IMG/VR virus record: IMGVR_UViG_3300023301_000006
Coordinates: 1-64,000 of that record
From: a virus
Reading direction: 5' to 3' (one strand)
DNA length: 64,000 nucleotides
Positions 526 through 58,846 of the stretch are shown in pieces; within the stretch, counting starts at the first letter, position 1, and the number at the start of each line of letters is the position of its first letter. Both the position numbers and the translations under genes were made by a program. The notes under the pieces were generated by a model that was not told the DNA's origin, did no database searches, and saw nothing but the letters and a program-made list of their open reading frames with translations.

Positions 526-1209
526 ATGGAGGTAAAAATGGAAAACACAGTACTCATAACAGTAATTGTGACTCCTGTCATAGCCTTTTTCCTAAAGGTT
601 CTTTATCAAGAATATTTATTCTTTAGGAATAAAAATGAGAGACCAACAACAGTGTTGAAAAAACATGAGTTGTTGAATTCTTATTTCGACAATCGGTTAA
701 ATTTTATAAATAACATATGAAATATTTCTGATAAGGGTAGACAGACTGTTGTAAGAATTGCGATGACAGCTTATTTGGAGATTTGGAGAGAACATTTATT
801 GGAGTTAGCAAAGGAGGTAGACGAGTCACACAAACGAGAAAAAGAATGTGCAGACCTATACCAAATAAACATGAAGGCTTTTAATACATCGATAGAAGAG
901 TACACTCATTTCTATCAGAATAATAATTTCTCAAAGGAGGAAAATGAAATATTTGAGATTTTTATGGATAAGTTTCAATCTTATCATCTAAGCAACATCA
1001 AATCAATAGAGGGGTTTGTATTTAGAATATGTATGAATAAGTTAATAACAAATTGTGTAGAAATACAGTATATGATATTCTCAAATTACTTAAGTGCATT
1101 TGATATTACTTTCATGGACATGAATGATACTGTCTCAAAGTTAAATGGAGAACTTACTGGGAAAATTATTAATGACATAAAAATAGGAGAATTAAAGGAG
1201 GTGTATTAA
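526..1209 (+). CDS. Membrane-anchored hypothetical protein (lysis region), one TGA=Trp
   Basis: ORFs 526-720 and 763-1209 are in frame, joined through TGA 718-720; N-terminal TM helix. Confidence 0.75.
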
Positions 1210-1460
1210 TGAATAACTTTTGGACAAATGGATTTAGTATTGAAGAAACAAAATTTTCTACTCTAGTTCTTGTTTTATTCGTAGCATTCATTTATGTAAT
1301 ATATGCAGATGTTGCTAATGGGTATATTTACACTGATAAGATATTCGATGTTATCAAGTGGTTGATAGCAGGAATAGCAGGTATTAATGGATTACGTGTC
1401 TTGGGAGATTTGAGCGACAATACAAGCCATGACGAAAAAGAATATGATATTAGAGGATAA
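1209..1460 (+). CDS. Putative holin
   Basis: 83 aa, two hydrophobic segments, charged C-terminus, upstream of the lysin. Confidence 0.55.
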   Translation: MNNFWTNGFSIEETKFSTLVLVLFVAFIYVIYADVANGYIYTDKIFDVIKWLIAGIAGINGLRVLGDLSDNTSHDEKEYDIRG

Positions 1461-1593
1461 AAAAAACATAATTATACTTGAATTTGCCCTTAAATTACAT
1501 TTGTAATATAAAATATAGTTTAAGGGTATATTTATATCAAGAAAATAAAAGTAGTTTAGAACGAGATTTCATAAAAAGGGGTGATTGGGAAAA

Positions 1594-4236
1594 GTGAATA
1601 AAAATTTTGATGTATTCGAAAAGTTAAACATACATGAATGACATAGGGCAGGGTATACTGGAAAAGGTGTAAGAATAATGGAGTTAGAAGGTGCAAATCC
1701 ATTAAACCCTCAATTCGATAATATGTTGATAAATGACTTCGACGATGGTCTAGAAAAGGGAGACTTAAATAATTCCCACGGAAGCAAGGTTTTTGATGTT
1801 ATTCATCAAGTGTGTCCAGACTCAAAGTTGTTCGTAGGTAGCTCTTCTACTTCTGACATAATTAGTAAAACAGTACCCTACATTGATAAAAACGACATTC
1901 ATTTAGTCGGAGCTAGTCTAGGGGGATTTGATAGAGAAAAAGTTAATATAAAAATAAGGGAGCTCAAGGAAAAGGGTGTGGCTTTCTTTACTAGCGTTGG
2001 AAACACTGGAGATAGAGGAGCTGGTGAGTTTGCTAAAAGCGAAGAATGAATAAATACTGGTGCTGTTCATTTAAAGAAAGGTAAGCCTTACAGACCTTCT
2101 TACTCATCTATAGACGAAGTGTTAGACTTTACATGTTATTCCAATATTTACATTGAGTCAGATAAAAAAGATGGATACTGATTTAAACAACAAGGAACAA
2201 GTTTTTCCAATCCACTTCTAATGGCTATGGCAGGACTTATAAATCAGAAAGCATTAGAAGAAATTGGTAGAGTACTATGTCAGAGTGAAATTGAAGGTAT
2301 ATTCAAAGATAATGTTATGGACTTAGGAAAGGTCGGACGAGATGAATACTACGGACATGGATTGGTTATATTACCAAACCCAAAAGACTTAAAACTATCG
2401 AATTATGTAATGGGCAACAAGAAAGAAAAGACATCAAAGACAAATATGAAAGAACAGAGTAAAGTAGGAGGTACGGACATGAATTTTAAAAATAAGTATA
2501 ATATTAGATATGATTTATTAAGAGAAGGAAGTAAAAGAAGAAGTGGTAAAAGTGCTAGTAAAATAGGTTTTATAGTAGCCCATGATACAGGGAATAAAAA
2601 CTCTACAGCTGCTAATAATGTAGCTTTCTATAAAAGGAGAAATAAAGACGACTACGCTTCTGCACACACTTTCATAGACGATAAAGAAATAATAGAAATC
2701 ATACCAGCAACCAAAGGAAGAACTGAAAAGGCTTGGCATGTAAGATATAATACACCCACAGATAATTTAGCTTACGATAATGAGGCAAATGACTCAGCTA
2801 TTGGAGTAGAATTATGTTATGGTGACAATATTAATTTTCAGAAAGCCTATGATAGGTATATATGGTATATAACTTATCTTACTATACTATATGACTTAAA
2901 TCCTTATATAGACATAACGGGACACTTCTTATTAGACTCAACAAGAAAAACAGACCCAGTTAATGCTTTAAGGTTCGGTGGCAAAACTTGGAAGGAATTT
3001 CTATTGGATGTAATAAGCTTATACGAACAATATAAAGACACTTCAATCGAATTAAAAGATGAAGAGAAAATAGAAGTAAAAGTAAGTAATAACTACAAAC
3101 CAAATTTAAAAGTTGGAATGAGTTCTGAATATGTTACACTCTTAGAGAATGCTCTTATACAATTAGGGTACTTTACAGAAAAGCAATATTTAGACCAATA
3201 CTATGGAACTTACACTGAAAAAATCGTAAGGGAGTTCCAGACAGCAGAGGGAATTGAGATTGATGGTAGAGCAGGTCCTCAAACTTGAGCCACTATACAA
3301 AAAGCTATTGATAGAAAGAAAAAAGGCTCTTCTGTAGACTTCTTAAAAGAGAAGATGAACGGTGGCGAAGTAGTTATAATGGAGAAAATGTTAGACTTCG
3401 TTGGCTATAATTTAGGCAGTTATAAAGATGACTATTTTGGTTGGGTTACTACAAAGGCTTTAAAGAAATTCCAAGAAGATAACAACTTAGATGTAGATGG
3501 AATTTATGGCATAAATACTAAAAAGGCTTTAGAAGAAGCTTATATTAAAAAAAAAGAACAACCAGTAGTAGCTAGTGCCTATAGAAAAATTAGAATGTAT
3601 GATAGTGATATCCATATCTATAAAACGCAACCACAAGACAAAGTTAGAGTAGAAATAGGCAATCCAGGAGTGTTAGAGAAACTAAGTAATATATTTAATC
3701 CAGCAAAGGCAAAGATAAATGCAGGATTTTTCGGTGGCGGGAAAGAACACCTAGGAATGTTAATTAGAGAGGGACTTTATTATTATCCTCCTACTAGCAA
3801 CTTCATAGATTTTATCTATTACAAAAATGGTAAAACACAAATAAAGAACCTTGATGGATACGATGGTGCTTTATTAAGTAGTTTTCAGAATGAAGCACAT
3901 TGGGCGATTGGAACAAGCTGGTCCTTAATTCAAGAAGGAGAAGTCAATTTAGAAAACGCTGACAAAATATCTCATTCTGGTTGGAGAAATCCAAGAACAT
4001 TCTTCGGACAAAATAAAGATGGGACGTTTACGTTATGCGTAATAGACGGCAGGAAAATAGCAACTAAAGGAGTTACTGCAAAGCAAGAGGCTGAGATAGC
4101 TAAGCACTTGGGACTCTGGAACGCAGTCAACCTAGACGGTGGCGGTTCATCGGTAATGATAGTTGCTGGAAAGATAATGAATAACCCTTCTGATAAAGAT
4201 GAAAGGTTAATTGGTTCGGCAATAGTAGTAAAGTAG
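1594..4236 (+). CDS. 880-aa multidomain lysin: S8 subtilase + amidase_2 + 2x PG_binding_1 + NAGPA-like phosphodiester glycosidase; four TGA=Trp
   Basis: One frame from GTG 1594 with TGA at 1639, 2047, 2179, 3286. Motifs W-HRAGYTGKGV, HGSKV, GTSFSNP (S8); HDTGN, AWH, KTDP (amidase); DGRAGPQT-W and DGIYG (PG binding); NLDGGGSS (NAGPA). Confidence 0.85.
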
Positions 4237-4243: not shown

Positions 4244-5053
4244 ATGAAAGATGTTTATGATTTAAGCAACGCTGGAATATGAGCTTCAAAAGGATACAAA
4301 GGTCAAGGGACACATGTTGTAGTTCTAGATGATGAAGGAGACGCAACCCCTTGAATGAATCAAGTCAAAACAATTGGTACAATCCCAGGAGTCTTTTCGC
4401 ACAACACAAAAGTAAGTTTAGTTGTAAAAAAAATGGCTCCACTATGTAGAGTAACTATGATTAATTTCATTGGTGAAAACAGCAATAGGATTCAGGCTTT
4501 AGAATGGTTAAAGAAAAACAAAGAAGACATTGACTTAATAAACATGAGCTTTTCATTGAGTCGTGCACAAGAAGGCTACCGACAGATTCTAAGATTGGGA
4601 ATTCCCATGATATGTTCTGCAGGCAATCAAAGTCTTGAGTACGTGAGGTATCCTGCTTCTGATTATCAAACCGTTGCAGTAGGAGCATTTGATAGGACTA
4701 CAGGAGAAATAAAAGATTACAGTAACATTGGTCGGAAACTAGATTGTGTTGGATTTACAGATATTAGCGTACAAAGGAATGTATCTGGGTTTATGTATTC
4801 AGTACGAGGCACTTCTGCCTCAGCTCCCTATGTGACAGGAATAATAGCTATATACATGAGTTTCCTTAAGTCTAAGGGTGTGTATAAAAAAATGAACTAC
4901 CGTGAAGTGAAACGATTCTTAAAAAACATCAGTGTCGATTTAGGCTCTACAGGAAAGGATGTTAGAACAGGGTCTGGTTTAATAAAGTTACCCAAAGAAA
5001 TTAAATTACACAATCCTTGTTGGACTTGATGGAATAAATTAAAAAGTTTATAA
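4244..5053 (+). CDS. S8 subtilisin-like serine protease; three TGA=Trp
   Basis: W-ASKGYKGQG, VVVLDD, SHNTKV, SAGN, GTSASAP; TGA at 4280, 4352, 5027; TAA at 5051. Confidence 0.85.
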
Positions 5054-5489: not shown

Positions 5490-6061
5490 GCCTTAATTCC
5501 TGCTTCTTCTTCCAATGCTATCACTAAATCAAGGAGGGTGTCAGAGCTTCCCCTATGGTATTTTATCTTAACAGAGGCACTTGACGTTAATAAATTAGTT
5601 TTTTTATCGTCGACGAGAATTCCTCCACTCATGTCTATAAGCTCCTTGGTGTTTTCAAATGGGTCCAATTGAAGTCCTATAATCTGACTAATGAAAGGTA
5701 AATTAGTTCTACACCATTTTGTTTTCTTAGAAATATTTCCTTGGGTTCCAATAGTACATATATACAAATCGAATTCTTCGCTTAATCTAGCTAAGTAACC
5801 TCTGTCTTCTTCTGACATTTCTATTCTTTCAAAAAAATCGTCACTTTTATAAAAGGTTTCAATAATGTCTGAGGCTGATTTCTTGTCATTCTCTTCGAAG
5901 ATTACTGGCAACTCTGTCGAGTAATCCCATGAGTTACTTCTAAAAAACATTCTTTGCACCTCTTTATCTAAGTGTCCATAATATTTTCTATACATATCAT
6001 AAATAATCTTATCTGAATTTATAATAACATTGTCGAAGTCTAAGAAAAGTTTTATTTTCAT
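5471..6061 (-). CDS. HAD-family 5'(3')-deoxyribonucleotidase
   Basis: LDFDNV motif I, KxxW, ILVDD motif IV. Confidence 0.75.
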   Translation of the reverse strand: MKIKLFLDFDNVIINSDKIIYDMYRKYYGHLDKEVQRMFFRSNSWDYSTELPVIFEENDKKSASDIIETFYKSDDFFERIEMSEEDRGYLARLSEEFDLYICTIGTQGNISKKTKWCRTNLPFISQIIGLQLDPFENTKELIDMSGGILVDDKKTNLLTSSASVKIKYHRGSSDTLLDLVIALEEEAGIKAIKKTS

Positions 6062-7188
6062 TAAATCGCCAATTTCTTAATCGCCATGTAACTAACTACA
6101 GAAGTGATAAATGACACTGTAATCGGTGATACAACTACTAAATTTCTACTAAGAATAAAAGCCAACAATGATAGTGCTGTTACTATTGCCTTTGTCTTAT
6201 TGAATTTAATATCCATTAAAGTTGTTGCTCCTAGATTAATGAATAAGAATAATAATAGGGCTCCGTATATTGGAAATGGAACTCTGGATAAAGAATTAGC
6301 TATAATTGGGACAAAAGCCATAACTATAAATATTAACGCTGTGTATATCTGAGCTGTTGGATGTAAATCCCTCTCTCCAATACTCTTTAAGAAACCATTA
6401 TTTTCAGAATAAGATACCGTTGGTACTCCGAAAAATGATGAGAATATATTTGCCGTTCCTATCCCAAAGAATACACAAGACCAACTCATATCTTCTCCTA
6501 ATTCAACTTCGTTTATCATTGCTGTCGCTGAAACATCTCCAAACACTTCTCCTATAACAGATATCGAAATTAAACTGATTGCAGTAAAAGCAGTGATTGA
6601 AACATGAGGAACTGTAAGGAATATAGAACCTGTGTCCATTGGAGCCACTCACATTCCCGCATAATATGTTCCTGCTCCCATTAATAGTAATGACAACGGC
6701 AATGCGTAATCTTTAACCTTTGGTATAAATGATAGTGTTAATAAAATACCTATTGTTATAAAACCAATTTGCGAGTTCGCCATACTCCAACCAATTGGAA
6801 TTAACAGTAAAGATATATATACAACTGATAATTTAAATATAAACTTGGGAACTCTGTTTAATAGGTTGGGGAATTTTTTAAGTATGGCTCCAACTCCTAG
6901 ATATATTAAACCTATTCCTAACACTCCAAACCCTACATATTCGTTCCCCAGTGTCTGAGATATCAATAACATACCACCAATGTATGAGGCTGATACACCC
7001 AATACACTAGATAGTTTATTTTTTGTAAAGATGTGAAAAATCAATGTTGACAATCCAACTGCCAAAAAGGCATTACTGGGAGTCACACCAACTGTTGCCG
7101 CAACGAATAAAATACTGGTTAAAGCTACTGCCATGTGCTCAAGCCCCATTGCAAAGTGCTTAATATGTCTCTTAAATATGCTTACCAT
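6061..7188 (-). CDS. NCS2 (uracil/xanthine) nucleobase permease; one TGA=Trp
   Basis: Two abutting in-frame hydrophobic ORFs joined at TGA 6649-6651; GLEH and PTVSYSENNG NCS2 signatures. Confidence 0.8.
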
Positions 7189-7731: not shown

Positions 7732-8268
7732 TTAAATACTACTATTCTCTATGTCAAATACTATGTCTGCTGAACTTGCGTCCTCCCCCCATTGATATTC
7801 ATTCAATTGTTCAATAGCATGTACTCCTATCAATATTGCGTCACTTTCATCATTCGTTACTTTTATATTAAATCTATCCAACACGTATTTTTTTGAAGCT
7901 CTCTTTTTTTCAGTTCTTCCTTTACCTTTAATGCTTGAAGAACTCCTCCATTGAGAAGCTGTAACAACTAAAAACTGTATGTTGTTTTCATATAGTCAAG
8001 TTACTAATACATATAGTAGTCCAGATAATTTCTTATGTGTCGCTGCATTCCTCATATAGTAAACATCTTCAACTACTACTGCATCAATATCGTATTCCTC
8101 AACTATTTCTATCATTCATTTTTTTATTCCGGCAATCTTCTCTACGTACTTATTTCCATCCACTTTCATTTTCCCGTAATCTAACATCGATGCTTTACCA
8201 TCTTTGTAATTAAATACGGCAAACCCACTTGTGGTTGCTTGGTCTAAGGCTAAAATGTTTAATTCAAT
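7732..8268 (-). CDS. ruvC: RuvC-like Holliday junction resolvase; two TGA=Trp; probable ATT start
   Basis: Absent from ORF track; reads ILALDQATTSGFAVF...VVVEDV...SQWRS...NDESDAILIG; TGA at 8116-8118 and 7996-7998. Confidence 0.8.
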
Positions 8269-8270: not shown

Positions 8271-8858
8271 TTACATCTCCTTCAATTGTTTTTTTAAAAA
8301 GTGTTTAGGACAAAGTGGTATATACATTTCATCACCAACTAACACTTCTTCACCATCCGTGACTACTTTCCCATTGACAACTCGTGAGTTAAACTTTGCT
8401 CGTTTGCCACACCAACATAAACCTATTATCTCATCAAAGCTATCTCCAAGTTCGAATAGTCTTTTGCTCCCTTTAAAAAACTCTCCCTTAAAAGTTGTCT
8501 TTAGTGTATAGGTTAAAACTGGGATTCCTCTCAGGTGTGCTATCCTATATAACTGTTCTACTTGTTCGCCACTTAGAAATTGAGACTCATCTATAATTAT
8601 AACATCTGTTTCTATGTTCCTTTGAATCCTTTGGTCTAATAACACTAATATATTGTCATGTTTTGTTATAGGTTCGGCAGGTGTACTACTACCCTCCAAC
8701 CTAGACTGTATTTGGTTCGTTCCTTCTCCTCTGTCACTGATGTCTAATTTTAAAGTCCAAACACTCTTATTTCTTCTTTTGTATTGGTAAACAACTCTTA
8801 ATAAATCTAAAGTTTTACCAGCTCCCATTGTCCCATGCTTGACATATAATTTTGACAT
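8271..8858 (-). CDS. tdk: Thymidine kinase
   Basis: GTMGAGKT, IIDESQF, CWCG...YIPLC. Confidence 0.9.
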   Translation of the reverse strand: MSKLYVKHGTMGAGKTLDLLRVVYQYKRRNKSVWTLKLDISDRGEGTNQIQSRLEGSSTPAEPITKHDNILVLLDQRIQRNIETDVIIIDESQFLSGEQVEQLYRIAHLRGIPVLTYTLKTTFKGEFFKGSKRLFELGDSFDEIIGLCWCGKRAKFNSRVVNGKVVTDGEEVLVGDEMYIPLCPKHFLKKQLKEM

Positions 8859-9029
8859 TTAGTCCACTTTAAGTTTCTCTTTTAAATACGGACTTAAATC
8901 AATAGCTATCCATATTGGCAGATATATTAAAATTATTTGCCACCAAGTAGCATCTGGGTAGTACATGCCACTCATTCTTGTCCAAACGATTGGTAATGCC
9001 ATTATTAAAATGTAAAGTAATCTTCTCAC
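8859..9029 (-). CDS. Small membrane protein
   Basis: GTG start after GGAGG, 56 aa hydrophobic. Confidence 0.6.
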   Translation of the reverse strand: MRRLLYILIMALPIVWTRMSGMYYPDATWWQIILIYLPIWIAIDLSPYLKEKLKVD

Positions 9030-9038
9030 TTTGACCTC

Positions 9039-9302
9039 CTATTTTTTATCCATTATATAAATACAAACCAATAAGAACAAAACCACTCCTATAAAATCAA
9101 AAGCCAAGTCTGGTAAAGAACTTGTCCACCTCGAACCTTTGACGGTTATATCATATATTTCTTTTCCTATTCCTATCATTAAAGTTAAATTAAAACCATA
9201 TCTAATTGCTCTTATTTTATCATATTTGAGCAAAAGAACTCCTGATTGATAAATGGTATTGGCAATAATAAAACTACAAACTAAGTGTAAAATAGAACCC
9301 AT
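9039..9302 (-). CDS. Small membrane protein
   Basis: H...GIGKEIYD...DLAFDFIG membrane pattern. Confidence 0.65.
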   Translation of the reverse strand: MGSILHLVCSFIIANTIYQSGVLLLKYDKIRAIRYGFNLTLMIGIGKEIYDITVKGSRWTSSLPDLAFDFIGVVLFLLVCIYIMDKK

Positions 9303-9303
9303 A

Positions 9304-9561
9304 TTACATCATGTTCTCCTTCGTTATACTTGCGATATTTTCTTGCATGTGACTTGAAACTTTAGCATATCCTTCGTCATTAACTTCTTCGGGAAATCCT
9401 CTAAATTCAACTCTAGCAGGGTACACTTCTAATATCTCCCCATCTTCAACATCAAAGACAATAGCCCATCCGAATAGATGTAAAGTAGTATTTATGAACC
9501 AAAGCAAACCACTATCTTGAAATTCTTTCCATTTTTTTCTTTTTATCATAGAACCTCCCAT
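9304..9561 (-). CDS. Conserved phage hypothetical protein
   Basis: WKEFQDSGLLWFINTTLHLFGWAI motif; start may be a few codons downstream. Confidence 0.65.
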   Translation of the reverse strand: MGGSMIKRKKWKEFQDSGLLWFINTTLHLFGWAIVFDVEDGEILEVYPARVEFRGFPEEVNDEGYAKVSSHMQENIASITKENMM

Positions 9562-9562
9562 T

Positions 9563-10030
9563 TTAATCTGTGCTTCCTATTCCTCCAGCTCTCTCCTCTG
9601 TTACTTCTTCTTCATCGTCAACTGTTTTATAAGTCATAAATATTCCTTGTGCAATAGCGTCTCCAGCACTTATTGTCAATGGAACGTTACTCTCATTCCT
9701 CATCTTTAACCATATGTGACCTTCATTCGGTGAACCAATATAGTCTGCATCAATTACGGCAGTCGTATTAGCAAGTCTAACATAGTATTTAAACCCCAAT
9801 GAACTTCTTGGCATAATGAGTAAAACCTCATCTTCTTCCATATCAACTTTTATTCCCGTAGGGAGTTTTATTTCGTCTCCGCTGTCTAGTATAAAATTAT
9901 AAGGGGAGAAAAAATCATACCCCGCTGACATCTTCGTTCCTCTTTTAGGAATTTTTATATCTTCTCTACCCATTTCCTTCATGTCTTTGTCCATTTGGAC
10001 TTGCGATATTCTATGAAACTTTCTACTCAT
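9563..10030 (-). CDS. dut: dUTPase (trimeric)
   Basis: AGYDF, PRSS, VIDADY, IAQG, RAGGIGST. Confidence 0.92.
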   Translation of the reverse strand: MSRKFHRISQVQMDKDMKEMGREDIKIPKRGTKMSAGYDFFSPYNFILDSGDEIKLPTGIKVDMEEDEVLLIMPRSSLGFKYYVRLANTTAVIDADYIGSPNEGHIWLKMRNESNVPLTISAGDAIAQGIFMTYKTVDDEEEVTEERAGGIGSTD

Positions 10031-10691
10031 CGTCTTCCTCCTCTAAATCCTTTTCTCCTAGTATTATTTCATTAACTTCACAATCTTTTGAGTTCACATA
10101 GTAGATTTTACCGCCTACACTCAATACATGTTCTTCTGTTAATTTTATAGCATTAATCAATTTGTCAACTGGAGGTGTATCTTCGTCCCAATTAAGCATT
10201 TTCATAACGGCTGTGCTATGGTATTGACCACTACCAATTACATAGTAATCATTTTCTATAGGAACCATAGAGTAATCTCCACTCATAAGGTACATTTTAT
10301 CTTTAAAAACTATTAATAATTCCCCATCAAAACGCTCCCCGTCTTTAGGACTATGCGTTGTAACAATTTCTATTACTTCCTTGAGTTCAAATTTTACCTG
10401 AGTGATAAATTCATAATCTCCTAAATTATTTTGAAATTCTTTATTAGCTCTCTCTAAAGCTCCTCTGACTTTCTCATTCCTTGTTTCTGACATTATCTTC
10501 GGCAAAAATTCATAATATTGTAATTCAGACAAGCCCAATTCTCCCACCATTCCAATAAGTAAATTCCCATCCATGGTTGGGTTAACCTTGCATATATCTA
10601 ATCTAGTATCTGTAAAAGAATTGCTAGCCATTGAATCACTAGCCATATGAATTACCCCTTCTTTATCTCTAATTGCTATTACTACACTCAT
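10023..10691 (-). CDS. Ntn-hydrolase, HslV/proteasome-beta-like protease
   Basis: N-terminal (M)SVVIAI...MASDS and IGSG motif. Confidence 0.65.
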   Translation of the reverse strand: MSVVIAIRDKEGVIHMASDSMASNSFTDTRLDICKVNPTMDGNLLIGMVGELGLSELQYYEFLPKIMSETRNEKVRGALERANKEFQNNLGDYEFITQVKFELKEVIEIVTTHSPKDGERFDGELLIVFKDKMYLMSGDYSMVPIENDYYVIGSGQYHSTAVMKMLNWDEDTPPVDKLINAIKLTEEHVLSVGGKIYYVNSKDCEVNEIILGEKDLEEEDDE

Positions 10692-11024
10692 TTATACTTT
10701 CCTTTCATATTCAATTATTTCTACTGTGTAGGGTTCAACATAATAGAATTCTGGGTTTGTAGACTGTCCCTCTTGCATTTCCGTTAAAGGTTCATCATAT
10801 TCCACTGCAACAAAGTAGTCATTTATCTTAAATATAGATTTTACTCTTGCATGCCATCTATGTTTTTCAACTTGTACGTCAACTATATACTCGAACTCTT
10901 CTGTACTGGCAAAATCCAACCTATCTAAGGTACTAAAAACAATATCTTCGAAATATGAATCATAGTCAGTAGTCGAGCTTTGTAATTCCTTAAGCAATGT
11001 TCTTTCCTGCTCTGGTGTATACAT
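10692..11024 (-). CDS. Hypothetical protein, paralog of 38825-39145
   Basis: Shared RW...SIF...LTExQ pattern. Confidence 0.65.
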   Translation of the reverse strand: MYTPEQERTLLKELQSSTTDYDSYFEDIVFSTLDRLDFASTEEFEYIVDVQVEKHRWHARVKSIFKINDYFVAVEYDEPLTEMQEGQSTNPEFYYVEPYTVEIIEYERKV

Positions 11025-11232
11025 TTTATCCTCCCCTTCATAAAAAAAATAGAAGTAAAAATACTCCTATTTAATTTTTATACCAATAGTTATTAAATAA
11101 ATTCACAGATTTATCTCTTAACAAATATGCAATAATCATTTCTGAAAACATTTTCCCCTCCTCCTTTTTTTAAAGAGAAGTCTTTTTATCTTCTAAAATA
11201 TATTGTATCACATATTACAATATCTGTCAAGT

Positions 11233-14200
11233 TTATCTTACAGGACAGTGACCACTTTCACATCCTGCTCCATCGTCTATCTCGAAGTCCGAACCATCTT
11301 CATAATCTGATAGTAACTCTTCGTCGAACTTTGGAAGTTCTTGAACCATATTCTTGTATTCGTCTTCAGTTATACTCTCGAAAGGAAGTAACTCATAAAA
11401 GCTATCATCTAATGATAAGAAAGATATTCCTACGAAACAATCCCAATTATCCCACAACCATTCCTCTACTAAGTCCCATTCATCTTTTCTAACATGGACA
11501 GTAATACTAGCATTATGGTCTACGAATTCTTCCATTAATAATTTGTACTCATCCAATTGTTCAATTGCACCTACGTCGTACTTAGTCCTACCCTTTGGAG
11601 CTTTAACAGGAAATTCAAATACTTTCGTAGAATGCTCTTCTCTAGTTTGTCCTACTTCTGGCTTCCATTCGAATCCGGAGTCTATCATAGACATCGCAAC
11701 AGGGTCTTTAGCTGATACTCTAACTCTTCTTATATAAAAAGGACTATGTGACCAATGAATACCCGAAGAAGCACTGTTAGGTAATATTGAAACTGTTCCT
11801 GCTGGTTGTGCTGTTGTTACTAATTCTGCTTTTGTTACATTATATTTCTTAGCTAATTCTTCATTCATGTTGTTTGCAACACTTCTCATGAATTTCAACA
11901 GCTTTTTCTTTTCATCTTGACTAATATTTCCTTTGTTTATAAAGTCTTGATATCCAGTCATTGAAACGCCAATTATTCTATCTTCTCTTGCAACATCATC
12001 CCACTCCAGTAAGTCCAACTCTTGTAGACTAATAATGAATGCTATATAAGTTGCCCATTCTACTGATTGCTCTAATTCATCATATAATATCCCTCCTGAT
12101 TCGTCTAAGAAAGATAACATGGATATAATGGTTAAATTACAATGTTGTTTCGATTTTAAAAGTATTTCCGCACCTTACCACACTTACTTTCATAAGCCAA
12201 CTTTAAGTTGTTGTAGTCTGGACTATACCATATTACATTTAAGTAATGAGATATTATAGTCTCTGAACATCCCCTATAAAATAAGGTTTTGATGCTGATT
12301 GTCCAATTCATACAATTTTTAACATTCGCGTTTATAGTTTCCTATTACGCTGTAGTTTGTATGACTCTAAGGAGTTTCCAGCAGTTTAATCTCTTTTAAA
12401 TCCACATGTTTGGTCTATGGATTAAGTCCTTCTGCGTCTGGTTTTCTTCTTTGAATCTCTTCTAGATTAGCTATTCCCACTTATATTAATCATAGACGCT
12501 ATTCATATGACCAGTCCTTAAAATGTAATAGGGACTGCTATATATTTCTATATAGGTTAGACTATATCATGACTCATTTGAGTCTCTTCCGCTTCGAATA
12601 CCAATAACTTGTATTCTACTCCTTTTCAGGATAGTCGTTGAACTTTAACAGTGTTGGAAGTTACATGTAACACTATTCTTAGCTGCTGATTGTCTTTGCC
12701 ATTACGCAGTAAGAGTTTCCAGCAATTCAAAAGATTTATAGAACCCAGTTTTTACTTTAGGCTCTCCAGAAACTTTCATAGTTTGAACATGCTCGTGTAA
12801 AGCCTCTCTTGCAGGTTTTTTCTTATACAGTACAGTGTTATTGCTCATTTGTCTATGTTTTATATCTGTGTCTATTTGCCATTTACCATTAACTTCTGTA
12901 TATAAGTTAGTCTTTGCATTTCTTGTTTCGTAATCGTCAGCAGACACTAAGGCAATTTCAGCTGCTCTCCTTACCATTTATATTCGAACATGTTCGTTAG
13001 GCATATCCCGTTCTCCTATGAACTGCTATATGTTGCCATATAGATTAGACTATATCTTCACTCTTATACATTTAAGCAAAAGAGGTTTCCTGTTTCCACT
13101 CACTTGAGTGTACGTCTTTCGACTAGTCGTTGCACCTTTTATAATTAATCTTCTTTTTATTTTTTTTACCAATCTTCCTTACAGAAGATTAATTATAACT
13201 TGGCTCAGAATTGTCTTAAGATACACTTAAGAGTTTCTCTGAATTTAAGAAATGTTTTTTTGTGTTGGAGGCATAAAATTTACCACCAACAACTATTGCT
13301 TCTGCTATTAAGCCATTAATATCTAACATATCAATAGGCTTTAGCTTAACTCTATGTCTGGTTATCTTACCACCGTTAGAATTTTTAATAATTCTGTCTA
13401 TTCCACTAAAAGACTCTTTTAAAGGTATATGACCACTTGCTGTGCCACCAAATGTCTTTAGGACCTCTCCCGCAGGACGAACATTATCATAGTTGAATAA
13501 GATAGTTTTTATTAAACCATCACTTGAACTAGCTTTGTAGTTGACTAAAAACTCTAAATAAATCTTTAATGATTCAGTCCAACCTCTTTTAGAATCTCCA
13601 ACTACAATCTCTAGTATAGAATTATTACTTAATGTCGTTGTTGTTAACTCTTGTCTAGCTAGTCTTGGAACAGGCTGATAGTCCTTGTGAATTATTTCTA
13701 TGTCTTGTCTTACTGGTTGTATCTTTTCAACGTCTTCTTTCAGTATTCTATATCCGACACCACTACCCAACATTAATAAGTACATTGCGTCAACTAGGTT
13801 AAATATATCGTCCATTGTGACATAACTACAATTAAAAGCACTTTGGAAATTTCTTTTAATGGATTCTGTCCCACCCGTATATCTGATTCTGCCAGAAGAA
13901 AATACTTTGAAATTGTACATCAAGTCAAATAATTCTTCTGCTTTCTCAGAGTCACCTTTGGGGTCTAACTCTATCATATAGTCCACAACTCTTGCGTTCA
14001 TTTCCAACCAAGTTTCTCGTCTATTTATGCCTTTAATAAATCTAGAGTATGTTCTATAGAAAGTAAATTTTGATAACTCTGAGTCAAATGGATTTGGGTC
14101 TCTAGCATAATCTCTTAAAAACTCTTTGTTCAAATATTTAAATTTCTTGTAAGGGTGCCACCTCTCCCTTATCTGTTTGTGCTTTTCTCTATATAATATA

Positions 14201-14457
14201 AAAGCTTTTACTACTTTGCCTTGGTCTGCGTGTACTAATTCAGACTCAACCATATCCTGTACTTGTTCTATTGTGAAACTTTTACCCATAAAATCTTCAT
14301 GATGTTTAGCTTCTTCTTCTATAGTTCTTCCTATATCCGAACACAGCTTCATATCAAGTTCTACGTCTTTGACATCTGAAAAGGCTGAGGCTATAGCATT
14401 AATAACCTTGTCTTTCTGAAATTCTTCTTCACTTCCATCTCTTTTAATAATAAACAT
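11233..14457 (-). CDS. nrdJ: Class II (AdoCbl) ribonucleotide reductase with ATP cone; four exons 14457-13282, 12974-12759, 12477-12417, 12173-11233 (797 aa)
   Basis: Splicing restores VVGG|VRRAA, GEP|G, NP-C-AEI; also RTYSR, FNC, PAGT and C-terminal CESGHCPVR. Confidence 0.9.
12174..12416 (-). mobile_element. Group I intron (nrdJ intron 3, 243 nt) splitting the catalytic Cys codon
   Basis: P1 AATCCAT/GTGGATT, terminal G; T|GT restores NPCAEI. Confidence 0.85.
12478..12758 (-). mobile_element. Group I intron (nrdJ intron 2, 281 nt)
   Basis: P1 GAGCCT/GGGTTC, terminal G, P7 core; restores GEPG. Confidence 0.85.
12975..13281 (-). mobile_element. Group I intron (nrdJ intron 1, 307 nt, ORF-less)
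   Basis: Exon ends in U pairing U-G in P1 (GTTGGTGGT/GCCTCCAAC), terminal G, GACTA/ATAGTC P7 core. Confidence 0.85.
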
Positions 14458-14523
14458 ATATCACTCCTTTATTCTTTTACCGTGTAAACTCTATTATACC
14501 ATAGATTTTTATTGTTGTCAAGT

Positions 14524-15048: not shown

Positions 15049-15051
15049 ACT

Positions 15052-15537: not shown

Positions 15538-15619
15538 ATATTTCCTCCTATTTGTATTTTCTATCCTAATTATATTATACCATTTAAGTAAAAGAAAGTC
15601 AAGGTTTTTCTTACAAAAG

Positions 15620-20233: not shown

Positions 20234-20313
20234 TTATACCTCCTTTTCTTTTTTTTCTTATCTTATATATACATTATACCATTATTTTATAATTTTTACA
20301 ATATCTTTTTTTC

Positions 20314-38609: not shown

Positions 38610-38615
38610 AAATAT

Positions 38616-39145: not shown

Positions 39146-39153
39146 CCATATTA

Positions 39154-51818: not shown

Positions 51819-53104
51819 CTATACTTCTTTATATAATGGACAGTCATCTTTTATTTCTTCATATTTGTATAAGAATACGCGAGAATTGTTGTTTGCCTCC
51901 TTTATTGAAGATTTGTAGATTGATTTTGATGGAGGCTTGGGTATTTCATATATTATACCTTTTTCTTTCTCATCAAAGTACTTCAAATCAATTAAAGTTG
52001 AACCACTCTTCCATCTATAACCATTCTTGTGTAGTTCTTTAGACAACTCATTTATTTGGTCTTTATTTGTGAGTATGACTCTAAGACCTTGGCTCAATAG
52101 TTCTTGCCTTATTTTCATTTTATACCTCCCCGTATATTGGTTTTAATAGTGAAATGGCATCTATTTCAATTATCTTATAATTTTGACGATAGTGACTAAT
52201 AAAGCTATCTGCTTCTCAGGAAGAACTGGTCTCCCAAATATATCCTTCCCCCATCAAAAATAATGTACTATGCTCAATAGTGCGAAGTGACTTTACCAAT
52301 GGACCATCGAAACTCCAGCGGAGTTTTTTGTCAATTGCATATGACTCAAACAACTTAAGTATTTCTTTAGTTCTTATTGATACCACATAGTAATTCACTT
52401 TATACCTCCTTATATAAAAAGATTGCTTCCCATATGTCCTCAAAGTTTAGTGTGATATCATCTTTTATGTCCAAATTTTCAATTTTATCATATGACACAC
52501 GAAGTTTATCTAAACGGACTTTATAATATAAAGGATACATATATTCAGGAGGAAGCCACTCTGGCAAAAAATCCCCATCTTGCCAACGGTAACCTAACTT
52601 ATTCAATGCTTTACTTACATCAATTACATCTGGTTGATTTTCTAATATAACGCAAAATTCATCTGGTAATCCTTTTCTCAATATCATATTTTACACCTCC
52701 TGGTATAGATGGAATGGTCTAACTAACATATCAGAATGAAAAGAATAGCCAGTCTCTCCGTCTAGGTTGTATAAGTCATTTTGCTTTCTTGTTATTTCAA
52801 AAGTTTTTCCGCAGAACTTATTCATCTCTGCCGAAAAACCGTATCGAACGTCACTTATCTCAAATTCCCCCTGTAGATGATGGGTAGGGTTAATTAGAAA
52901 GTGTTTTTCAAACTCCTTTTTGGTTTTTACCCTTACTATGTCCCCAACTCTATAGACAGGAGAATATAGTTCTAAACTATCTGGTTTGAACGTAAAATCG
53001 AGTCTCTTTCTCTTGAGAAATGGTCGATTGTCGTTAACCTGAAAAGCCATTCCTTTGTGGGTTCCATCTTTCGTTGTATGTAACACATCCATTGCAATTC
53101 CCAT
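51819..53104 (-). CDS. Four YxEV-tag genes: 51819-52118, 52120-52398 (TGA=Trp at 52216), 52400-52687, 52691-53104
   Basis: Ends LYKEV, IYGEV, LYKEV, LYQEV; families A, C-like, A, B. Confidence 0.75.
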
Positions 53105-56292: not shown

Positions 56293-56387
56293 TTATTTCC
56301 ACTCCTTTATATTTTTTATTTCTTTTCTTATACTTATATTATATCAGAAAATGAATAAAATTACAAGAAAAAAATGTAGCTTTCAAG

Positions 56388-58846
56388 CTACACCTCTTTG
56401 TAAATTGGTGAGAGTAAATCAATTGCGTTAATTATTTGAAAATTACTTGGATTCTTTTCTTGTTGAATGTATCCATCATTAACTGCTACATCAATCGTCC
56501 AGAAGTCTTGCTCACCCATCAAGATAATCTCAGTTCTTCTTCCCATAAGTATTTTGAAATCAGAGTCTATATTATCATTATTATAAAAAAGATTATTAGT
56601 CTGTGCGTAGTGATATACTATTTCTATATCAGTTTTATTTCTTATTCGGATTATTGTGTAGTCCTTCATATTATTACACCTCTTTATAAAATCCTAAGGG
56701 CAAGTCAATTGCGTCAATTACTTGAAAATTGTCAAGATTCATTTTTTGTTGGCGATATCCATCTCTCAGTGCTATATCAACCGTCCAGAAGTCTGTCCCA
56801 TCTATCAAGATAATTTCAGTTTCTCTTCTCATAAGTATTTTGAAATCAGAGTCTATTTTATTCTTATTATAAAGAAGATTATTTGCAAGTGCATAGGAGT
56901 ATATTAACATTATGTCAATTTCACTTTTTACTCGGATTATCGTATATTTTTTCACGTTACTATACCTCCTTGAATATCACTTCAAACATGGTTTCTCTTA
57001 TGTCTATTGTTTCATAAGTGAAACCCATAGATTGTAGAGCTTTTAATTCCTTGTTGTAATCTACGCCAAAACTAACCCGATTCCATACACTTATACACCC
57101 CACTTGTGCCCTTGAGGGTATATCAGAAGAATAATTGTGAATTCCTGCTGACCTTAAGTACTCTGGGAAATGTCTACGATTAAATCCAATTCTAAAATCT
57201 ATTACTTTATAATCCATACTACACCTCCTTGTAAATGTAAATAAAATCTTTTATATATTTAATGCCTAACTCTTTCACTTCATTTCCTCTTTTTTTCTCA
57301 TATCCAAGAGAATCATCATAGTTCTCCACAAGCCAGATAGAGTTATTTTCTATTATTACTCCTTGACAAGGGTAATTAATTAGTGCGTTTTCGTTTCCTG
57401 CGTGTTCTCAGACGTAATCCTTTACTTTTGAAAAAATATAGAACATGTGTTTCTCAGAAAGATTAGTTAATCTAATTAAATCTATGGAACTCATAATTAC
57501 ACCTCCTGATATAATGGAAAAGTGTCTAGAACTTCTATAAAATCATAAACTCGATTACCCTGTCTTTTATAATAAGAAACGGGACATTTTGTTACTAATT
57601 TAGAACTACGTATGTGGTAGGCAATATCCCTTTCTGCTCCTTCAAAGTAGTTAAGTTTTTCTAAGTCTCGTCCACTTTCCCATTGACAACCATCGTCACT
57701 TAACATTTTTGAAAGCATTCTGGTTTCATCGAGAGTTCGTAATCTTACTACAAATCCATTTTCTAATAAATCTCTTCTTATTTTCAAAAATTACACCTCC
57801 TTGTACGTTTTATCAACGGGTCCAATTAACATATCTGCGTCAAAGCTATAAGGACTTCCTTCAAGACGATAAGTCCCATCAAAAGTAACAGTAGACACTT
57901 TAAATTTTTTGCCACAATGGTCATTCATACTGGGTAAAAAACCCTTTTTTGTATCAACTAAGAATCCACTGAATTCATCTTCTGGGAATCCCTCAACGAC
58001 TGTAAAATTCCTTTTAAACTGCGATTTAGTTTTTACCCACACTATATCTCCGACAGAGAATCGAGGAGAGTCGAGAATTAGCTCCTCTTCTTTAAGAATA
58101 ACATCAAAATCCGTAACTCCTTTATAGATAGGGTGATATACGGGGTTGTGATTACAAGATGAAGCAGGTCTAGTGGTAAATCCACCTTTGATTCTATTCC
58201 CCTTTGTCTTGTAAAGTACACATTGACATTCTATCATATCTACACCTCCTCGTATAAGAATTTGCATACGTAAATTTCTTTATAATTATAAACAACAAGT
58301 CCTTGTTCTTCATATGTCACAGCACTATTGTATGACACAAACCCACCTTTCCAGCCAGGTTCCATACTATACGCCAAGGTACCTAGGGACATTCCGAAGA
58401 AGTTATGTTGTATTAAATTTCTACCTGACCACCACCTATAATCAAGAGAATCAAGTACTATTGAGAGTTCTCTAACTTCTTCCAACGTTTCTAACTTAAC
58501 TACAAATCCTTCGTCGAGTAACTTCTGTCTTATTTCCTTCATAGTATTATACCTCCTTGTACAAAAAACTTTCCTCAAGAATTTCTTCATATTCGCAAAA
58601 AATCTTCCCCGTTTTTCTACAAGACTCAGAGTTAGTAAATCCTACGTAATGGCTTCCAGAATAAGGCTCTATTACGTATACTAAATCTCCTCTTTCTCTT
58701 GGACTAGGAGTAAAGGTCACTAGACTTTCATTTGACCACCATTTGTAGTTAAGAAGGTCAAGTAATATTGAAAGTTCTTTGATTTCTTTCAACGTTTTTA
58801 GCTTAACTCTAAATCCTTCTTCGAGTAATTCCTGTTTTATTCTCAT
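56388..58846 (-). CDS. Eight YxEV-tag genes: 56388-56669, 56674-56955, 56960-57217, 57219-57494 (TGA=Trp at 57408), 57497-57787, 57791-58237, 58240-58542, 58547-58846
   Basis: Ends IYKEV, FYKEV, IFKEV, IYKEV, LYQEV, TYKEV, LYEEV, LYKEV. Confidence 0.78.

Follow-up and report, generated by a model that had tools for sequence, protein, structure and literature searches.

TGA is a tryptophan codon in a phage of hypersaline-lake origin, a reading that is strongly supported by comparison of its proteins with those of standard-code relatives. The window (the whole stretch of DNA that was analysed, 64,000 nucleotides in length) makes up the initial 64 kb of a linear viral record of 72,423 bases, for which CheckV estimates a completeness of 48%. 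Its replication module displays the gene order of SPbeta and of Enterococcus phages (Sak4, yorH-like, DnaB, primase-like, RecJ-like and PolIII-alpha, as in SPBc2, NC_001884; VRE9_4, PP680570; and GR1, OK896991). The relationship to such phages is distant (PolIII-alpha is 42-44% identical to that of SPbeta-like, Enterococcus and Geobacillus phages), and blastn returned no match for the phage itself; we infer that the window corresponds to the non-structural half of a large Bacillota phage. Recoding of TGA to tryptophan by phages is already published, for code-4 gut phages that include the 'Agate' (~127 kb) and 'Jade' clades (Borges et al., 10.1101/2021.08.26.457843), and the phage described here adds a member from a hypersaline lake, carrying the phenomenon beyond gut viromes to a phage related to the SPbeta-like ones of Bacillota. 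The large genome, the alignment of in-frame TGA with tryptophan and the richness of lysis-cassette genes in recoded stops are shared with the gut phages as that study describes them, whereas the lake origin and the SPbeta-like replication module are not. The recoding has been caught at a low and patchy stage (13% of tryptophan codons); strains that are 87-94% identical show sites being gained and lost, and should be useful for the study of stop-codon capture.

When the longest code-4 open reading frames are taken between positions 526 and 57494, 27 in-frame TGAs are found in 18 of them, which reproduces the number given in an earlier note on this DNA; one of the 27, however, is probably non-coding. 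That triplet (56977-56979) is codon 3 of the ORF at 56674-56985 and precedes a GTG (codon 11) accompanied by a perfect AGGAGG, and a paralogue (56388-56669) aligns to the ORF from that GTG onward. Because it sits before the likely true start, 26 TGAs rather than 27 were retained in a curated set of 89 genes and 17,018 codons, where they stand against 178 TGG (the commoner codon, as had been claimed) and are the only in-frame stops, TAA and TAG never occurring when the genes were checked by script. The TGA previously assigned to a NUMOD motif is present, but it lies in a homing-endonuclease remnant outside the 18 counted ORFs. Among the genes listed in Table 1, the membrane protein that opens the lysis cassette has no Pfam match, the NrdD-like RNR gene is split by two group I introns, and the last CxxC of the zinc ribbon encoded at 29372-30439 falls beyond that gene's TGA. 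The 106-aa gene within the tRNA array starts with ATG, has an AGGAGG 10 nt upstream, and carries its TGA in a column covered by no homologue; the ATG of the 91-aa gene is preceded by a perfect AGGAGG. Gene calling under code 11 fragments the lysin, DnaB, RecJ, primase and polymerase genes (protein library entry P0037, similarly, is a code-11 fragment of the second S8 protein, residues 38-261), so that correct annotation requires recognition of the code.

Table 1. Features of the window, with in-frame TGAs and the TGA share of tryptophan codons by module.
Feature	Positions	Strand	TGA/Trp codons	Details
Lysis cassette			8/23	
Membrane protein gene, head of lysis cassette	526..1209	+		TGA 718-720 (codon 65); TGA also in relative L005
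883-aa lysin	1585..4236	+		Degenerate S8, Amidase_2, two PG_binding_1, NAGPA (Pfam); TGAs 1639, 2047, 2179, 3286 (codons 19, 155, 199, 568)
Second S8 subtilase-like gene	4244..5053	+		TGAs 4280, 4352, 5027 (codons 13, 37, 262)
Block 5471-8187	5471-8187		3/10	
Xan_ur_permease-type permease	6061..7188	-		TGA 6649-6651 (codon 180)
RuvC-like resolvase (Pfam)	7732..8187	-		TGAs 8116, 7996 (codons 24, 64)
Nucleotide-metabolism block, TGA-free	8271..17900	-	0/38	Thymidine kinase, dUTPase, NrdD-like RNR, dNMP kinase, middle and C-terminal PolIII-alpha
NUMOD YKNYY-W frame	18008-18244	-		78 codons stop-to-stop, within insertion in PolIII gene
Replisome block	18419..30439	-	11/30 (11 TGA, 19 TGG)	PolIII-alpha N-part, RecJ, 69-aa ORF, primase-like, DnaB with intein, yorH-like, Sak4, unknown gene, zinc-ribbon protein
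Block 30453-33348	30453-33348		0/6	
SLT-domain protein	32734-33348			
Plus-strand block	33555-44658	+	1/18	
ROOL RNA	36166-36726			Ahead of tRNA array
tRNA array	36822..39230	+		16 canonical tRNA genes
106-aa gene within tRNA array	38825..39145	+		TGA 38864-38866 (codon 14)
Candidate UGA-reading tRNA	39324..39421	+		Anticodon UCA, loop CUUCAAA, 7/5 cloverleaf
440-aa Cys-rich protein	45131..46453	-		TGA 45140-45142 (codon 438/440), sense or true stop
Small-gene block			3/79	
Small YxEV-tail family gene	52120..52443	-		TGA 52216-52218; no homologue column
91-aa gene	57219..57494	-		TGA 57408-57410 (codon 29); no homologue column

The assignment of tryptophan was borne out by the alignment columns into which the TGAs fall, by the TGG columns of the same proteins, which served as a control, and by TGA/TGG exchanges in close relatives. 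Up to 82 standard-code relatives were aligned, and means were calculated over columns with at least 20 homologues. The mean tryptophan fraction was 0.515 over 8 TGA columns (51.5%, against a background of 0.9%) and 0.521 over 12 TGG columns, while control columns for Gly, Ser, Cys and Arg gave 0.000-0.003 and those for Tyr and Phe 0.013-0.017. The TGA columns together contain 472 cells (W 260, S 6, G 3, C 0), W is the commonest residue in 10 of the 18 that have homologues, and none of the 82 related loci carries an in-frame stop.

Individual columns differ in how clearly they speak. Tryptophan predominates at PolIII codon 520 (79/82), DnaB codon 614 (57/60), Sak4 codon 64 (50/50) and primase codon 165 (51/64), the last being the W-xxEGI motif to which the earlier note had drawn attention; tryptophan also prevails at the subtilase motif W-xxGYxGxG, both at codon 13 of the second S8 gene (W 55/60) and at lysin codon 19 (W in 3/3 distant homologues). 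Two further motifs gave less uniform columns: the PG-binding GPQT-W (lysin codon 568) has W in 5/5 mid-distance homologues but Y, F or A in more distant ones, and at the RecJ NE-W-NG (codon 557) a TGA is present, but W accounts for only 14 of 52 homologues, with Y in 34 and F in 4. Other columns are mixed or divergent, namely lysin codons 155 (W/F/W) and 199 (ambiguous), codon 37 of the second S8 gene (H 13, F 10, W 6, Y 6), RecJ codon 89 (I 36, Y 13), primase codon 126 (N/D/W) and yorH codon 87 (E), while codon 262 of the second S8 gene has W in 32 of 38 non-gap cells and W180 of the permease is invariant in 6/6 homologues (56-96% identity). The RuvC-like columns are uninformative because just 3 distant homologues align (L, G). 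At the C-terminal end of the Cys-rich protein, the paralogue 29372-30439 offers no guidance.

Two close relatives (L001 and L005, 87-94% identical) display free exchange at these sites: 15 window TGAs correspond in them to 8 TGA, 7 TGG and no other codon, and 63 window TGG remain TGG while one, at a column that is invariant in the smaller alignment (A3) and nearly so in A1, becomes TGA. In L001 the seven shared replisome TGAs comprise 4 TGA and 3 TGG. L005, which is without the second S8 gene, has TGA, TGG, TGG and TGA at the four lysin positions, TGA at lysin codon 773 (TGG in the window phage), TGA and TGG at the two RuvC-like positions and TGG at permease codon 180. Changes relative to the two genomes are predominantly synonymous (synonymous to non-synonymous, 453:125 and 650:289). 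At the population level, position 20386 (RecJ codon 557) is changed from T to C, turning TGA into TGG, in three other lake runs (X2, X3 and X5). Close relatives thus use TGA and TGG interchangeably, as synonyms.

The use of stop codons agrees with the statement, made previously, that no gene must end at TGA: all 99 greedy code-4 ORFs (99/99) close with TAA (73) or TAG (26). For two genes, a TGA lying 2-3 codons before the end is an equally plausible stop: the one for the 440-aa Cys-rich protein and a gene at 71503-72255 (codon 247/250), outside the window. By contrast, three standard-code relatives end 15 of 87 ORFs at TGA, SPbeta-like, Enterococcus and Geobacillus phages using the standard code. 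Coverage by ORFs of at least 100 aa (0.679 under code 11, and 0.771, 0.725 or 0.876 with TGA, TAG or TAA as sense) cannot by itself discriminate between codes because the DNA is AT-rich.

While the sense reading of TGA is confirmed, its description as present 'across the phage' was overstated, since most TGAs fall within the lysis cassette, the block at 5471-8187 and the replisome. In these three modules TGA makes up 30-37% of tryptophan codons, as against 0-6% in the others (22/63 versus 4/141, Fisher p 1.7e-9); the spread over seven modules is uneven (chi-square p 3e-7), and the nucleotide-metabolism and replisome blocks differ from one another (Fisher p 3.6e-5). In the TGA-poor, presumably early modules, TGA serves as the stop in at most 1 of 70 genes.

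None of the 16 canonical genes of the tRNA array encodes a tRNA-Trp; a tRNA-Gly(UCC) at 38616-38687 was found by Rfam, and by ARAGORN at relaxed thresholds only. At the end of the array, 93 nt past the last canonical gene, lies the candidate tRNA(UCA), which has a long variable arm, G73, an atypical T-loop (AGCGUUA) and an encoded CCA, as in two tRNA-Glu genes. It was missed by default ARAGORN and by Rfam RF00005 (even at E <= 10), whereas ARAGORN at thresholds of 95% and 90% labels it 'tRNA-SeC(tca)'; 60 random 72-kb sequences yielded 37 ARAGORN hits, none with tca. The unconstrained minimum-free-energy fold is a cloverleaf with a 7-bp acceptor and a 5-bp T-stem, although its z-score is only -0.46. 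G73 and an anticodon arm of the UCA/CCA type are consistent with the identity rules of TrpRS, and we know of no description of a long variable arm in a tRNA-Trp. The long arm, G73 and UCA anticodon are shared with tRNA-Sec and allo-tRNAs as treated in one study (PMC5389517), which also places irregular long-arm tRNAs in phage tRNA clusters; the folds given there (8/4, 9/3 and 8/5) differ from the 7/5 fold of the candidate, and the protein evidence in this phage demands Trp rather than Ser, Sec or Cys. Selenocysteine tRNA was rejected as an identity on a score of 24 bits (E 0.02) against the Rfam tRNA-Sec cut-off of 47, together with the 0 Cys among 472 TGA-column cells, and the phage's own Tyr tRNA (40.6) and Ser tRNAs (35.3 and 30.3) all score above the candidate on that model; an allo-tRNA (8/4 or 9/3) was rejected on the 7/5 fold. 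Suppressor tRNAs are reported as detectable in only 35% of code-4 phage genomes, with non-canonical ones expected (10.1101/2021.08.26.457843), and the candidate described here, which differs from those of code-4 gut phages in its long variable arm, offers a concrete and testable decoder that standard finders miss and that bears on the apparent lack of suppressor tRNAs in most recoded phages. Separately, a tRNA-like stretch at 39236-39318 might fold as 8/4 by eye; it received no ARAGORN call even at 70%, and its minimum-free-energy fold is not a cloverleaf.

It is probable that the phage itself recodes TGA, in a walled, standard-code host belonging to the Bacillota. The phage would supply the decoder, in the form of the divergent candidate tRNA(UCA), and a host aminoacyl-tRNA synthetase would charge it with tryptophan; TGA would have spread as a minority codon through TGG-to-TGA drift, chiefly among lysis-cassette genes and those of the lytic replisome, while nucleotide-metabolism genes, small and presumably early genes and a plasmid-type Rep would stay readable in the code of the host. 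If module timing is as assumed, full-length lysin and replisome proteins would be made only after tRNA(UCA) is present, a dependence on tRNA of the kind that the code-switch proposal for gut phages envisages. Unlike the gut phages shown in that proposal (10.1101/2021.08.26.457843), whose replication machinery is in standard code, the window phage carries TGA in its replisome, which counts against the fit of the published model. Nor did any CRISPR, prophage or close bacterial match link the phage to a host. Recoding by the phage is nonetheless favoured by the module skew, the 13% share of TGA, the wall enzymes, the candidate tRNA(UCA), the standard code of all 82 relatives (82/82) and, indirectly, the Clostridia-like lysin domains (over its C-terminal half the lysin shares 54% identity with a Pseudobacteroides cellulosolvens protein and 45% with one from a Clostridiales MAG).

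The earlier note had reasoned from a walled host directly to phage recoding; the peptidoglycan enzymes are real (Amidase_2 and two PG_binding_1 domains in the lysin, and SLT) and the conclusion is the favoured one, but the argument is insufficient alone. The Eggerthellaceae are Gram-positive and walled. The argument falls short because code 4 has now been reported in that family (PMC13462651). What the enzymes do speak to is a wall-less host, for which no peptidoglycan lysis enzymes would be expected: Amidase_2, PG_binding_1, NAGPA and SLT are all present, and the host is therefore not one of the wall-less Mycoplasmatales.

A host that natively reads TGA as tryptophan (code 4, with no RF2), in which tRNA(UCA) would be supplementary or unneeded, is the strongest competing explanation, though an unlikely one. 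Such a host would account for the fact that TGA is needed as a stop in no module, including those nearly free of sense TGA, and would explain the avoidance of TGA stops in the TGA-poor modules equally well. No match to PF00472 (RF1) or PF00579 (TrpRS) was found in six frames of the 72-kb record (~48% complete), so that the code-change genes seen in some code-4 phage clades do not appear in this half genome; by standard measures the candidate tRNA(UCA) scores poorly, and code 4 keeps appearing in new places (the Eggerthellaceae and some Minisyncoccia; PMC13462651, PMC13695967). As in the native code 4 of Mycoplasmatales and others, according to the same reports, UGA is tryptophan, a tRNA with a UCA anticodon is present (a candidate in this case) and UAA is the preferred stop (73/99 ORFs). 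Native code 4 would, however, lead one to expect common and evenly spread TGA, whereas the 26 TGA against 178 TGG are few and patchy (chi-square p 3e-7), in a genome that encodes peptidoglycan hydrolases, and TGA supplies 13% of tryptophan codons whereas in other A/G codon pairs 67-79% of codons end in A. The module skew (p 2e-9) is not predicted unless modules were imported recently, the 82/82 replication-module relatives are in standard code, and the large published screens, so far as their reported placements go, put code 4 within the Bacillota only in Mycoplasmatales, with no code-4 Bacillota outside that order (PMC13462651, PMC13695967).

A more elaborate version of recoding by the phage, which we regard as doubtful, would make this a phage-plasmid with two programmes in two codes, a single unusual tRNA turning carriage into lytic growth. 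The standard code of the host would suffice for the Rep_3/iteron plasmid replicon, for nucleotide metabolism and for the small early genes, whereas lysis and lytic replication would require TGA to be read as tryptophan, and the switch would be a UCA tRNA that combines G73 with a long variable arm and is yet charged with tryptophan.

It is very unlikely that TGA is mainly a stop, with low read-through by near-cognate tRNA-Trp(CCA) attenuating the lysin and replisome and no dedicated tRNA involved. Bacillus subtilis does read UGA as tryptophan with low efficiency, the TGAs are rare and clustered in few modules, and the candidate tRNA(UCA) remains only putative; against this, four TGAs in the lysin and 11 in an essential replisome would be expected to leave negligible yields, TGA is shunned as a real stop, and the swaps with TGG at invariant tryptophan sites in close relatives behave as neutral synonymous changes do.

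That TGA encodes some other residue (Ser through a long-arm, G73 tRNA; Sec; Gly, as in code 25; or Cys) is more improbable still. The candidate tRNA might carry serine, its long variable arm and G73 matching the SerRS identity set (PMC5389517); the ARAGORN label is SeC; and code-25 bacteria and phages exist (10.1101/2021.08.26.457843). Serine charging would clash with the tryptophan columns, where Ser, Gly and Cys account for 6, 3 and 0 cells; TGA and TGG columns match in tryptophan fraction, as against 0.000-0.002 in Ser, Gly and Cys columns; L001 and L005 exchange TGA for TGG only, never for Ser, Gly or Cys codons; the score on the selenocysteine model lies beneath those of ordinary phage tRNAs; and 26 sites spread over unrelated proteins would be unlike selenoproteins.

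Assembly errors or decaying pseudogenes, which have nothing in their favour beyond the default suspicion toward in-frame stops in metagenome contigs, may be dismissed, given that 8 of 15 TGAs are retained in two relatives that were assembled separately, that the only in-frame stop is TGA, that the substitution ratios reported above indicate purifying selection across the genes, that conserved domains carry on downstream of the TGAs, and that an independently assembled Logan contig of run X1 matches positions 17000-31000 of the window with 0 differences at a depth of 354. Run X1 is probably the source sample.

The assignment of TGA to tryptophan in this phage, as an earlier note had proposed, is very well supported by comparison of the encoded proteins with those of related phages. 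The TGA-bearing proteins were translated with X at each TGA and aligned with relatives lacking in-frame stops in the aligned stretches, the main alignments comprising up to 82 loci from SPbeta-like phages and prophages. Across ten TGA columns, the 472 alignment cells (not independent, since many of the loci are near-duplicates) contained 260 tryptophans, 50 tyrosines, 14 phenylalanines, six serines, three glycines and no cysteine, against a tryptophan background of 0.9%. Tryptophan was the most frequent residue at codon 520 of the PolIII-alpha gene (79 of 82), codon 165 of the primase-like gene (51 of 64), codon 614 of dnaB (57 of 60) and codon 64 of the Sak4 gene (50 of 50); at RecJ codon 557 it ranked second to tyrosine, and five columns were variable or thin (RecJ codon 89, primase codon 126, yorH codon 87, and RuvC codons 24 and 64, the latter two with three homologues each). 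In the lysin, tryptophan was found in three of three distant homologues at codon 19 and in five of five mid-distance homologues at codon 568, with W, F and W at codon 155 and an ambiguous column at codon 199; it was present in six of six homologues at permease codon 180, and in the S8 gene in 55 of 60 at codon 13 and 32 of 38 non-gap cells at codon 262, codon 37 being mixed. Altogether, 10 of the 18 testable TGA columns were dominated by tryptophan.

Eight TGA columns had 20 or more homologues each, and tryptophan made up a mean fraction of 0.515 in them, as compared to 0.521 in the twelve TGG columns of the phage in the same alignments; the corresponding values were 0.000-0.003 for its glycine, serine, cysteine and arginine columns and 0.013-0.017 for its tyrosine and phenylalanine columns, and the TGA columns thus resemble TGG columns and those of no other residue. 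In PDB searches, the matches to the S8 gene did not cover its TGA columns, and the RuvC-like protein gave no match. The S8 gene, a second subtilase-like gene in addition to the S8 domain of the lysin, is absent from the relative L005, and both it and that domain carry TGA at the same conserved tryptophan site.

Two close relatives, assembled separately and each covering part of the window, were available for comparison: L001, from IMG/VR (93-94% identical), and L005, a JGI metagenome contig (87-90%). Fifteen TGAs of the window correspond in these relatives to eight TGA, seven TGG and no other codon, and 64 of its TGGs correspond to 63 TGG and one TGA, the single swap lying at a tryptophan column that is invariant in a smaller alignment (A3) and nearly so in another (A1). 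Synonymous changes exceeded non-synonymous ones (453:125 and 650:289 in the two comparisons), which indicates purifying selection on these genes, and the two codons thus interchange in them as synonyms. The site of RecJ codon 557 (20386, plus strand) was TGG in three further lake runs.

The use of stop codons was also surveyed. Among 99 greedily called ORFs, 73 end in TAA, 26 in TAG and none in TGA, as compared to 15 of 87 ORFs ending in TGA in three standard-code relatives. In two ORFs (45131-46453, and 71503-72255, which lies outside the window), a TGA lying two or three codons from the end could be a stop; similarly placed TGAs look like sense codons in 29372-30439, where a zinc ribbon has its fourth CxxC beyond the TGA, and at S8 codon 262, which occupies a tryptophan column. 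A paralogue family that lacks a Pfam match comprises 29372-30439, 31398-32558, 45131-46453 and, outside the window, a 78-residue copy (contig 67905-68153) with 74% identity to part of the first; two members have Cys-rich, zinc-ribbon-like tails.

When the longest code-4 ORFs from 526 to 57494 were used, 18 of them held a total of 27 TGAs in frame, which reproduces the figure of the earlier note. One of these is doubtful: the TGA at codon 3 of 56674-56985 is followed at codon 11 by a GTG that has a perfect AGGAGG, and the alignment of the paralogue 56388-56669 begins at that GTG. The TGA ascribed to a NUMOD protein is present, but belongs to what remains of an endonuclease gene (78 codons, 18008-18244) on an insertion within the gene for the polymerase. 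In a curated set of 89 genes, which comprises 17,018 codons, TGA occurs 26 times and TGG 178 times. The TGAs are not the product of misassembly, since an independently built contig spanning 17000-31000 showed no differences at a depth of 354. Coding density, which the earlier note had suggested comparing under alternative codes, did not single out code 4 and is not discriminating, since treating TAA as sense gave the largest gain. The base following TGA (A 11, G 9, C 3, T 3) displayed no obvious read-through context relative to TGG.

While the TGAs do extend from 526 to 57494, their distribution is uneven rather than general across the phage, and the nucleotide-metabolism and polymerase-C block contains none (see table). 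Heterogeneity among modules was significant by chi-square (p 3e-7), as was the difference between high- and low-TGA modules by Fisher's test (p 1.7e-9). The A-ending codon accounts for 67-79% in other A/G-ending pairs, and the 13% share of TGA among tryptophan codons is far below that expected from mutation pressure alone.

Modules with their TGA content, and other features of the window
Feature	Coordinates	Strand	TGA/Trp codons
Lysis cassette	86-5455		8/23
Block	5471-8187		3/10
Nucleotide-metabolism and polymerase-C block	8271-17900		0/38
Replisome block	18419-30439		11/30
Block	30453-33348		0/6
Plus-strand block holding the tRNA array	33555-44658	+	1/18
37 small genes	45131-62167		3/79
Lysin	1585-4236		
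S8 gene	4244-5053	+	
Permease	6061-7188		
RuvC-like gene	7732-8187		
Group I intron, first	12538-12809	-	
Group I intron, second	13026-13291	-	
PolIII-alpha (three ORFs)	15620-20233	-	
Insertion in PolIII-alpha	17896-18422		
DnaB helicase	24380-26755	-	
ROOL RNA	36166-36726	+	
tRNA-like RNA, 69 nt	36746-36814	+	
tRNA array	36822-39230		
tRNA-Gly(UCC)	38616-38687	+	
Aberrant tRNA-like stretch, 5' of tRNA(UCA)	39236-39318	+	
tRNA(UCA)	39324-39421	+	
Aberrant tRNA-like stretch, 3' of tRNA(UCA)	39500-39589	+	
Zinc-ribbon and OB-fold protein	40225-40767	+	
NAD salvage set	48990-51810	-	

Seventeen tRNAs were found in the contig with default ARAGORN and Rfam, and none for tryptophan or UGA was detected anywhere in it at default ARAGORN or Rfam gathering thresholds. 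At ARAGORN thresholds of 95% or 90%, a 98-nt candidate with anticodon tca, tRNA(UCA), was called 93 nt past the last canonical tRNA. Its unconstrained minimum-energy fold is a cloverleaf with a 7-bp acceptor stem, a long D-stem and a 5-bp anticodon stem; the anticodon loop reads CUUCAAA, and a long variable arm is followed by a 5-bp T-stem with an atypical T-loop (AGCGUUA), G73 and an encoded CCA. When 60 random sequences matched in length and dinucleotide composition were scanned with ARAGORN at 90%, 37 calls resulted, none of them tca. The general tRNA model did not match tRNA(UCA) even at E <= 10, its folding energy fell within the range of shuffled sequences (z -0.46), and a viral contig scan for its 22-nt anticodon-arm pattern gave no match. 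On the Sec model it scored 24 bits (cut-off 47), below the ordinary Tyr and Ser tRNAs of the phage, and the 'SeC' label is a product of the anticodon and long arm only. That it decodes TGA is probable but unproven. Its G73 and UCA anticodon are compatible with the identity set of bacterial TrpRS. A long arm and G73 also belong to the SerRS identity set (PMC5389517); the protein data require the decoder of TGA to deliver tryptophan. The candidate did not align with the type-II Ser, Tyr and Leu tRNAs of the phage, which lends no support to a recent origin from tRNA-Ser(UGA). The 72-kb record, whose CheckV completeness is 48%, encodes neither an RF-1-domain protein nor a class-Ib synthetase.

Default tRNA finders under-call the array, since tRNA-Gly(UCC), to which Rfam assigns 57.8 bits, was missed by the default ARAGORN run. 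A 'tRNA-Leu(aag)' that ARAGORN called at 23629-23726 under relaxed thresholds was rejected as being within random expectation (0.6 hits per 72 kb). Directly 5' of the array lies a full-length ROOL RNA (RF03087, 293 bits against a gathering threshold of 99), and between it and the first tRNA is a tRNA-like RNA with a G3:U70 acceptor pair, an ACCA end and a folding z-score of -2.4; with the tmRNA model it reached 44.8 bits, against a cut-off of 47, and with the tRNA model 26.5 bits. Aberrant tRNA-like stretches flank tRNA(UCA): the upstream one, left uncalled by ARAGORN, may have an 8/4 shape, and its hairpin loop reads CUCCAAC (anticodon CCA); the downstream one is called as tRNA-Arg(cct) at the 80% threshold only (folding z-score -3.4). 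Just 3' of the array, a zinc-ribbon protein with a tRNA_anti-like OB-fold is encoded (PF12869, E 5e-13).

Recoding by the phage itself is the probable origin of this code, and the best reading, which is not proven, is that TGA, which clusters in the genes for lytic replication and lysis, is decoded by a phage-borne tRNA(UCA) while the host keeps the standard code. The lysin contains Amidase_2, two PG_binding_1 and NAGPA domains, and a separate SLT-domain protein is also encoded; in its C-terminal half, the lysin shares 54% identity with a Pseudobacteroides cellulosolvens protein and 45% with one from a Clostridiales MAG. All 82 replication-module relatives use the standard code and, according to the available text of surveys of several hundred thousand genomes, code 4 occurs within the Bacillota only in the Mycoplasmatales (PMC13462651, PMC13695967). 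A walled, standard-code host is favoured by the peptidoglycan hydrolases, the Clostridia-side lysin matches, the code of the relatives, these surveys, the low and patchy use of TGA, and the phage-borne candidate tRNA. For host inference, the Rep_3 protein showed only about 31% identity to plasmid Reps from unrelated bacteria, the permease had only metagenome proteins as homologues, and the bacterial relatives of the lysin were distant. The earlier argument that a walled host implied phage recoding was sound as to the hydrolases, which are real, but the step from 'walled' to 'standard code' is unsafe alone, because code 4 occurs in the Eggerthellaceae, a Gram-positive family, and in some Minisyncoccia. 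Those recent findings (PMC13462651, PMC13695967) are a point for a host that itself uses code 4, as is the avoidance of TGA as a stop even in modules that scarcely use it as sense; such a host nonetheless seems unlikely, since TGA forms a small fraction of the tryptophan codons and is patchily distributed, and the hydrolases and phage-borne candidate tRNA speak against it as well.

Recoding of TGA to tryptophan in phages is already known, and the salt-lake phage fits that kind. The available text of one study indicates that suppressor tRNAs are detectable in only 35% of code-4 genomes, that some are expected to be non-canonical, that recoded codons are enriched in the lysis genes of 'Agate' phages of about 127 kb, and that, in its model, early genes remain readable in the standard code (10.1101/2021.08.26.457843). 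Mass-spectrometric proof has been provided for TAG-to-Gln phages in a study whose available text does not mention code 4 (PMC9523058). The present phage differs from known code-4 phages in its hypersaline-lake habitat, its SPbeta-like replication module, the presence of TGAs in the replisome genes themselves, and the shape of its candidate tRNA. A literature search for code-4 phages and hypersaline settings disclosed no recoded salt-lake phage, the match listed being a cold-seep virome study.

The phage record is a single linear viral contig of 72,423 bases (G+C 33%; CheckV completeness 48%), of which the window forms bases 1-64000. Its large genes serve replication, nucleotide metabolism and lysis, and no capsid, portal or tail genes were found in the window. 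The replication genes follow the order Sak4, yorH-like, DnaB, primase-like, RecJ-like and PolIII-alpha, as in Bacillus phage SPbeta and Enterococcus phage VRE9_4, and the best phage matches of PolIII-alpha (42-44% identity) are the SPbeta group, Geobacillus GR1, and Enterococcus EF1 and VRE9_4; a blastn search of a phage collection with 13216-16990 gave no match. The window DNA is present in its entirety in one hypersaline-lake metagenome run, probably its source, and relatives about 93-94% identical occur in salt-lake and lake-water runs from other studies. Gene content, SPbeta-type order and saline-lake occurrence together show the window to be the half without structural genes of a large Bacillota phage that occurs in saline lakes; the structural half, missing from the 72,423-base record, appears to lie on a contig of 115,563 nt that encodes an identical lysin. 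A metagenome scan with the lysin retrieved a single 11-kb relative that does not reach past the start of the window, and viral contig scans gave no match for the proteins 526-1209 and 39700-40215 or the permease alignment. The NAD salvage set consists of adjacent genes for a NadR-like nicotinamide-nucleotide adenylyltransferase, a metallophosphoesterase and a PnuC-like transporter. The region 62516-63410, on the strand opposite to its neighbours, contains a Rep_3-type initiator (Rep3_N and Rep3_C) and constitutes a plasmid-type replicon within the phage; the gene itself (62691-63410) has no TGA and is preceded by five 21-bp direct repeats (iterons).

Several genes of the window are split or interrupted. 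The gene for an NrdD-like anaerobic ribonucleotide reductase is divided by two group I introns (RF00028, 94.8 and 71 bits), and its exons include 13216-14457, 12702-12977 and 11233-12120. The DnaB helicase contains an intein with a LAGLIDADG homing endonuclease, which is absent from relatives in two metagenome runs (X3 and X5), since 24976 is there joined to 26070 with 28 other letters between. The insertion in PolIII-alpha, which contains the NUMOD-like remnant, is missing in L001 and in run X5, and L001 has its own insertions of about 0.7-0.9 kb elsewhere in PolIII and RecJ; the mobile elements thus differ between strains.
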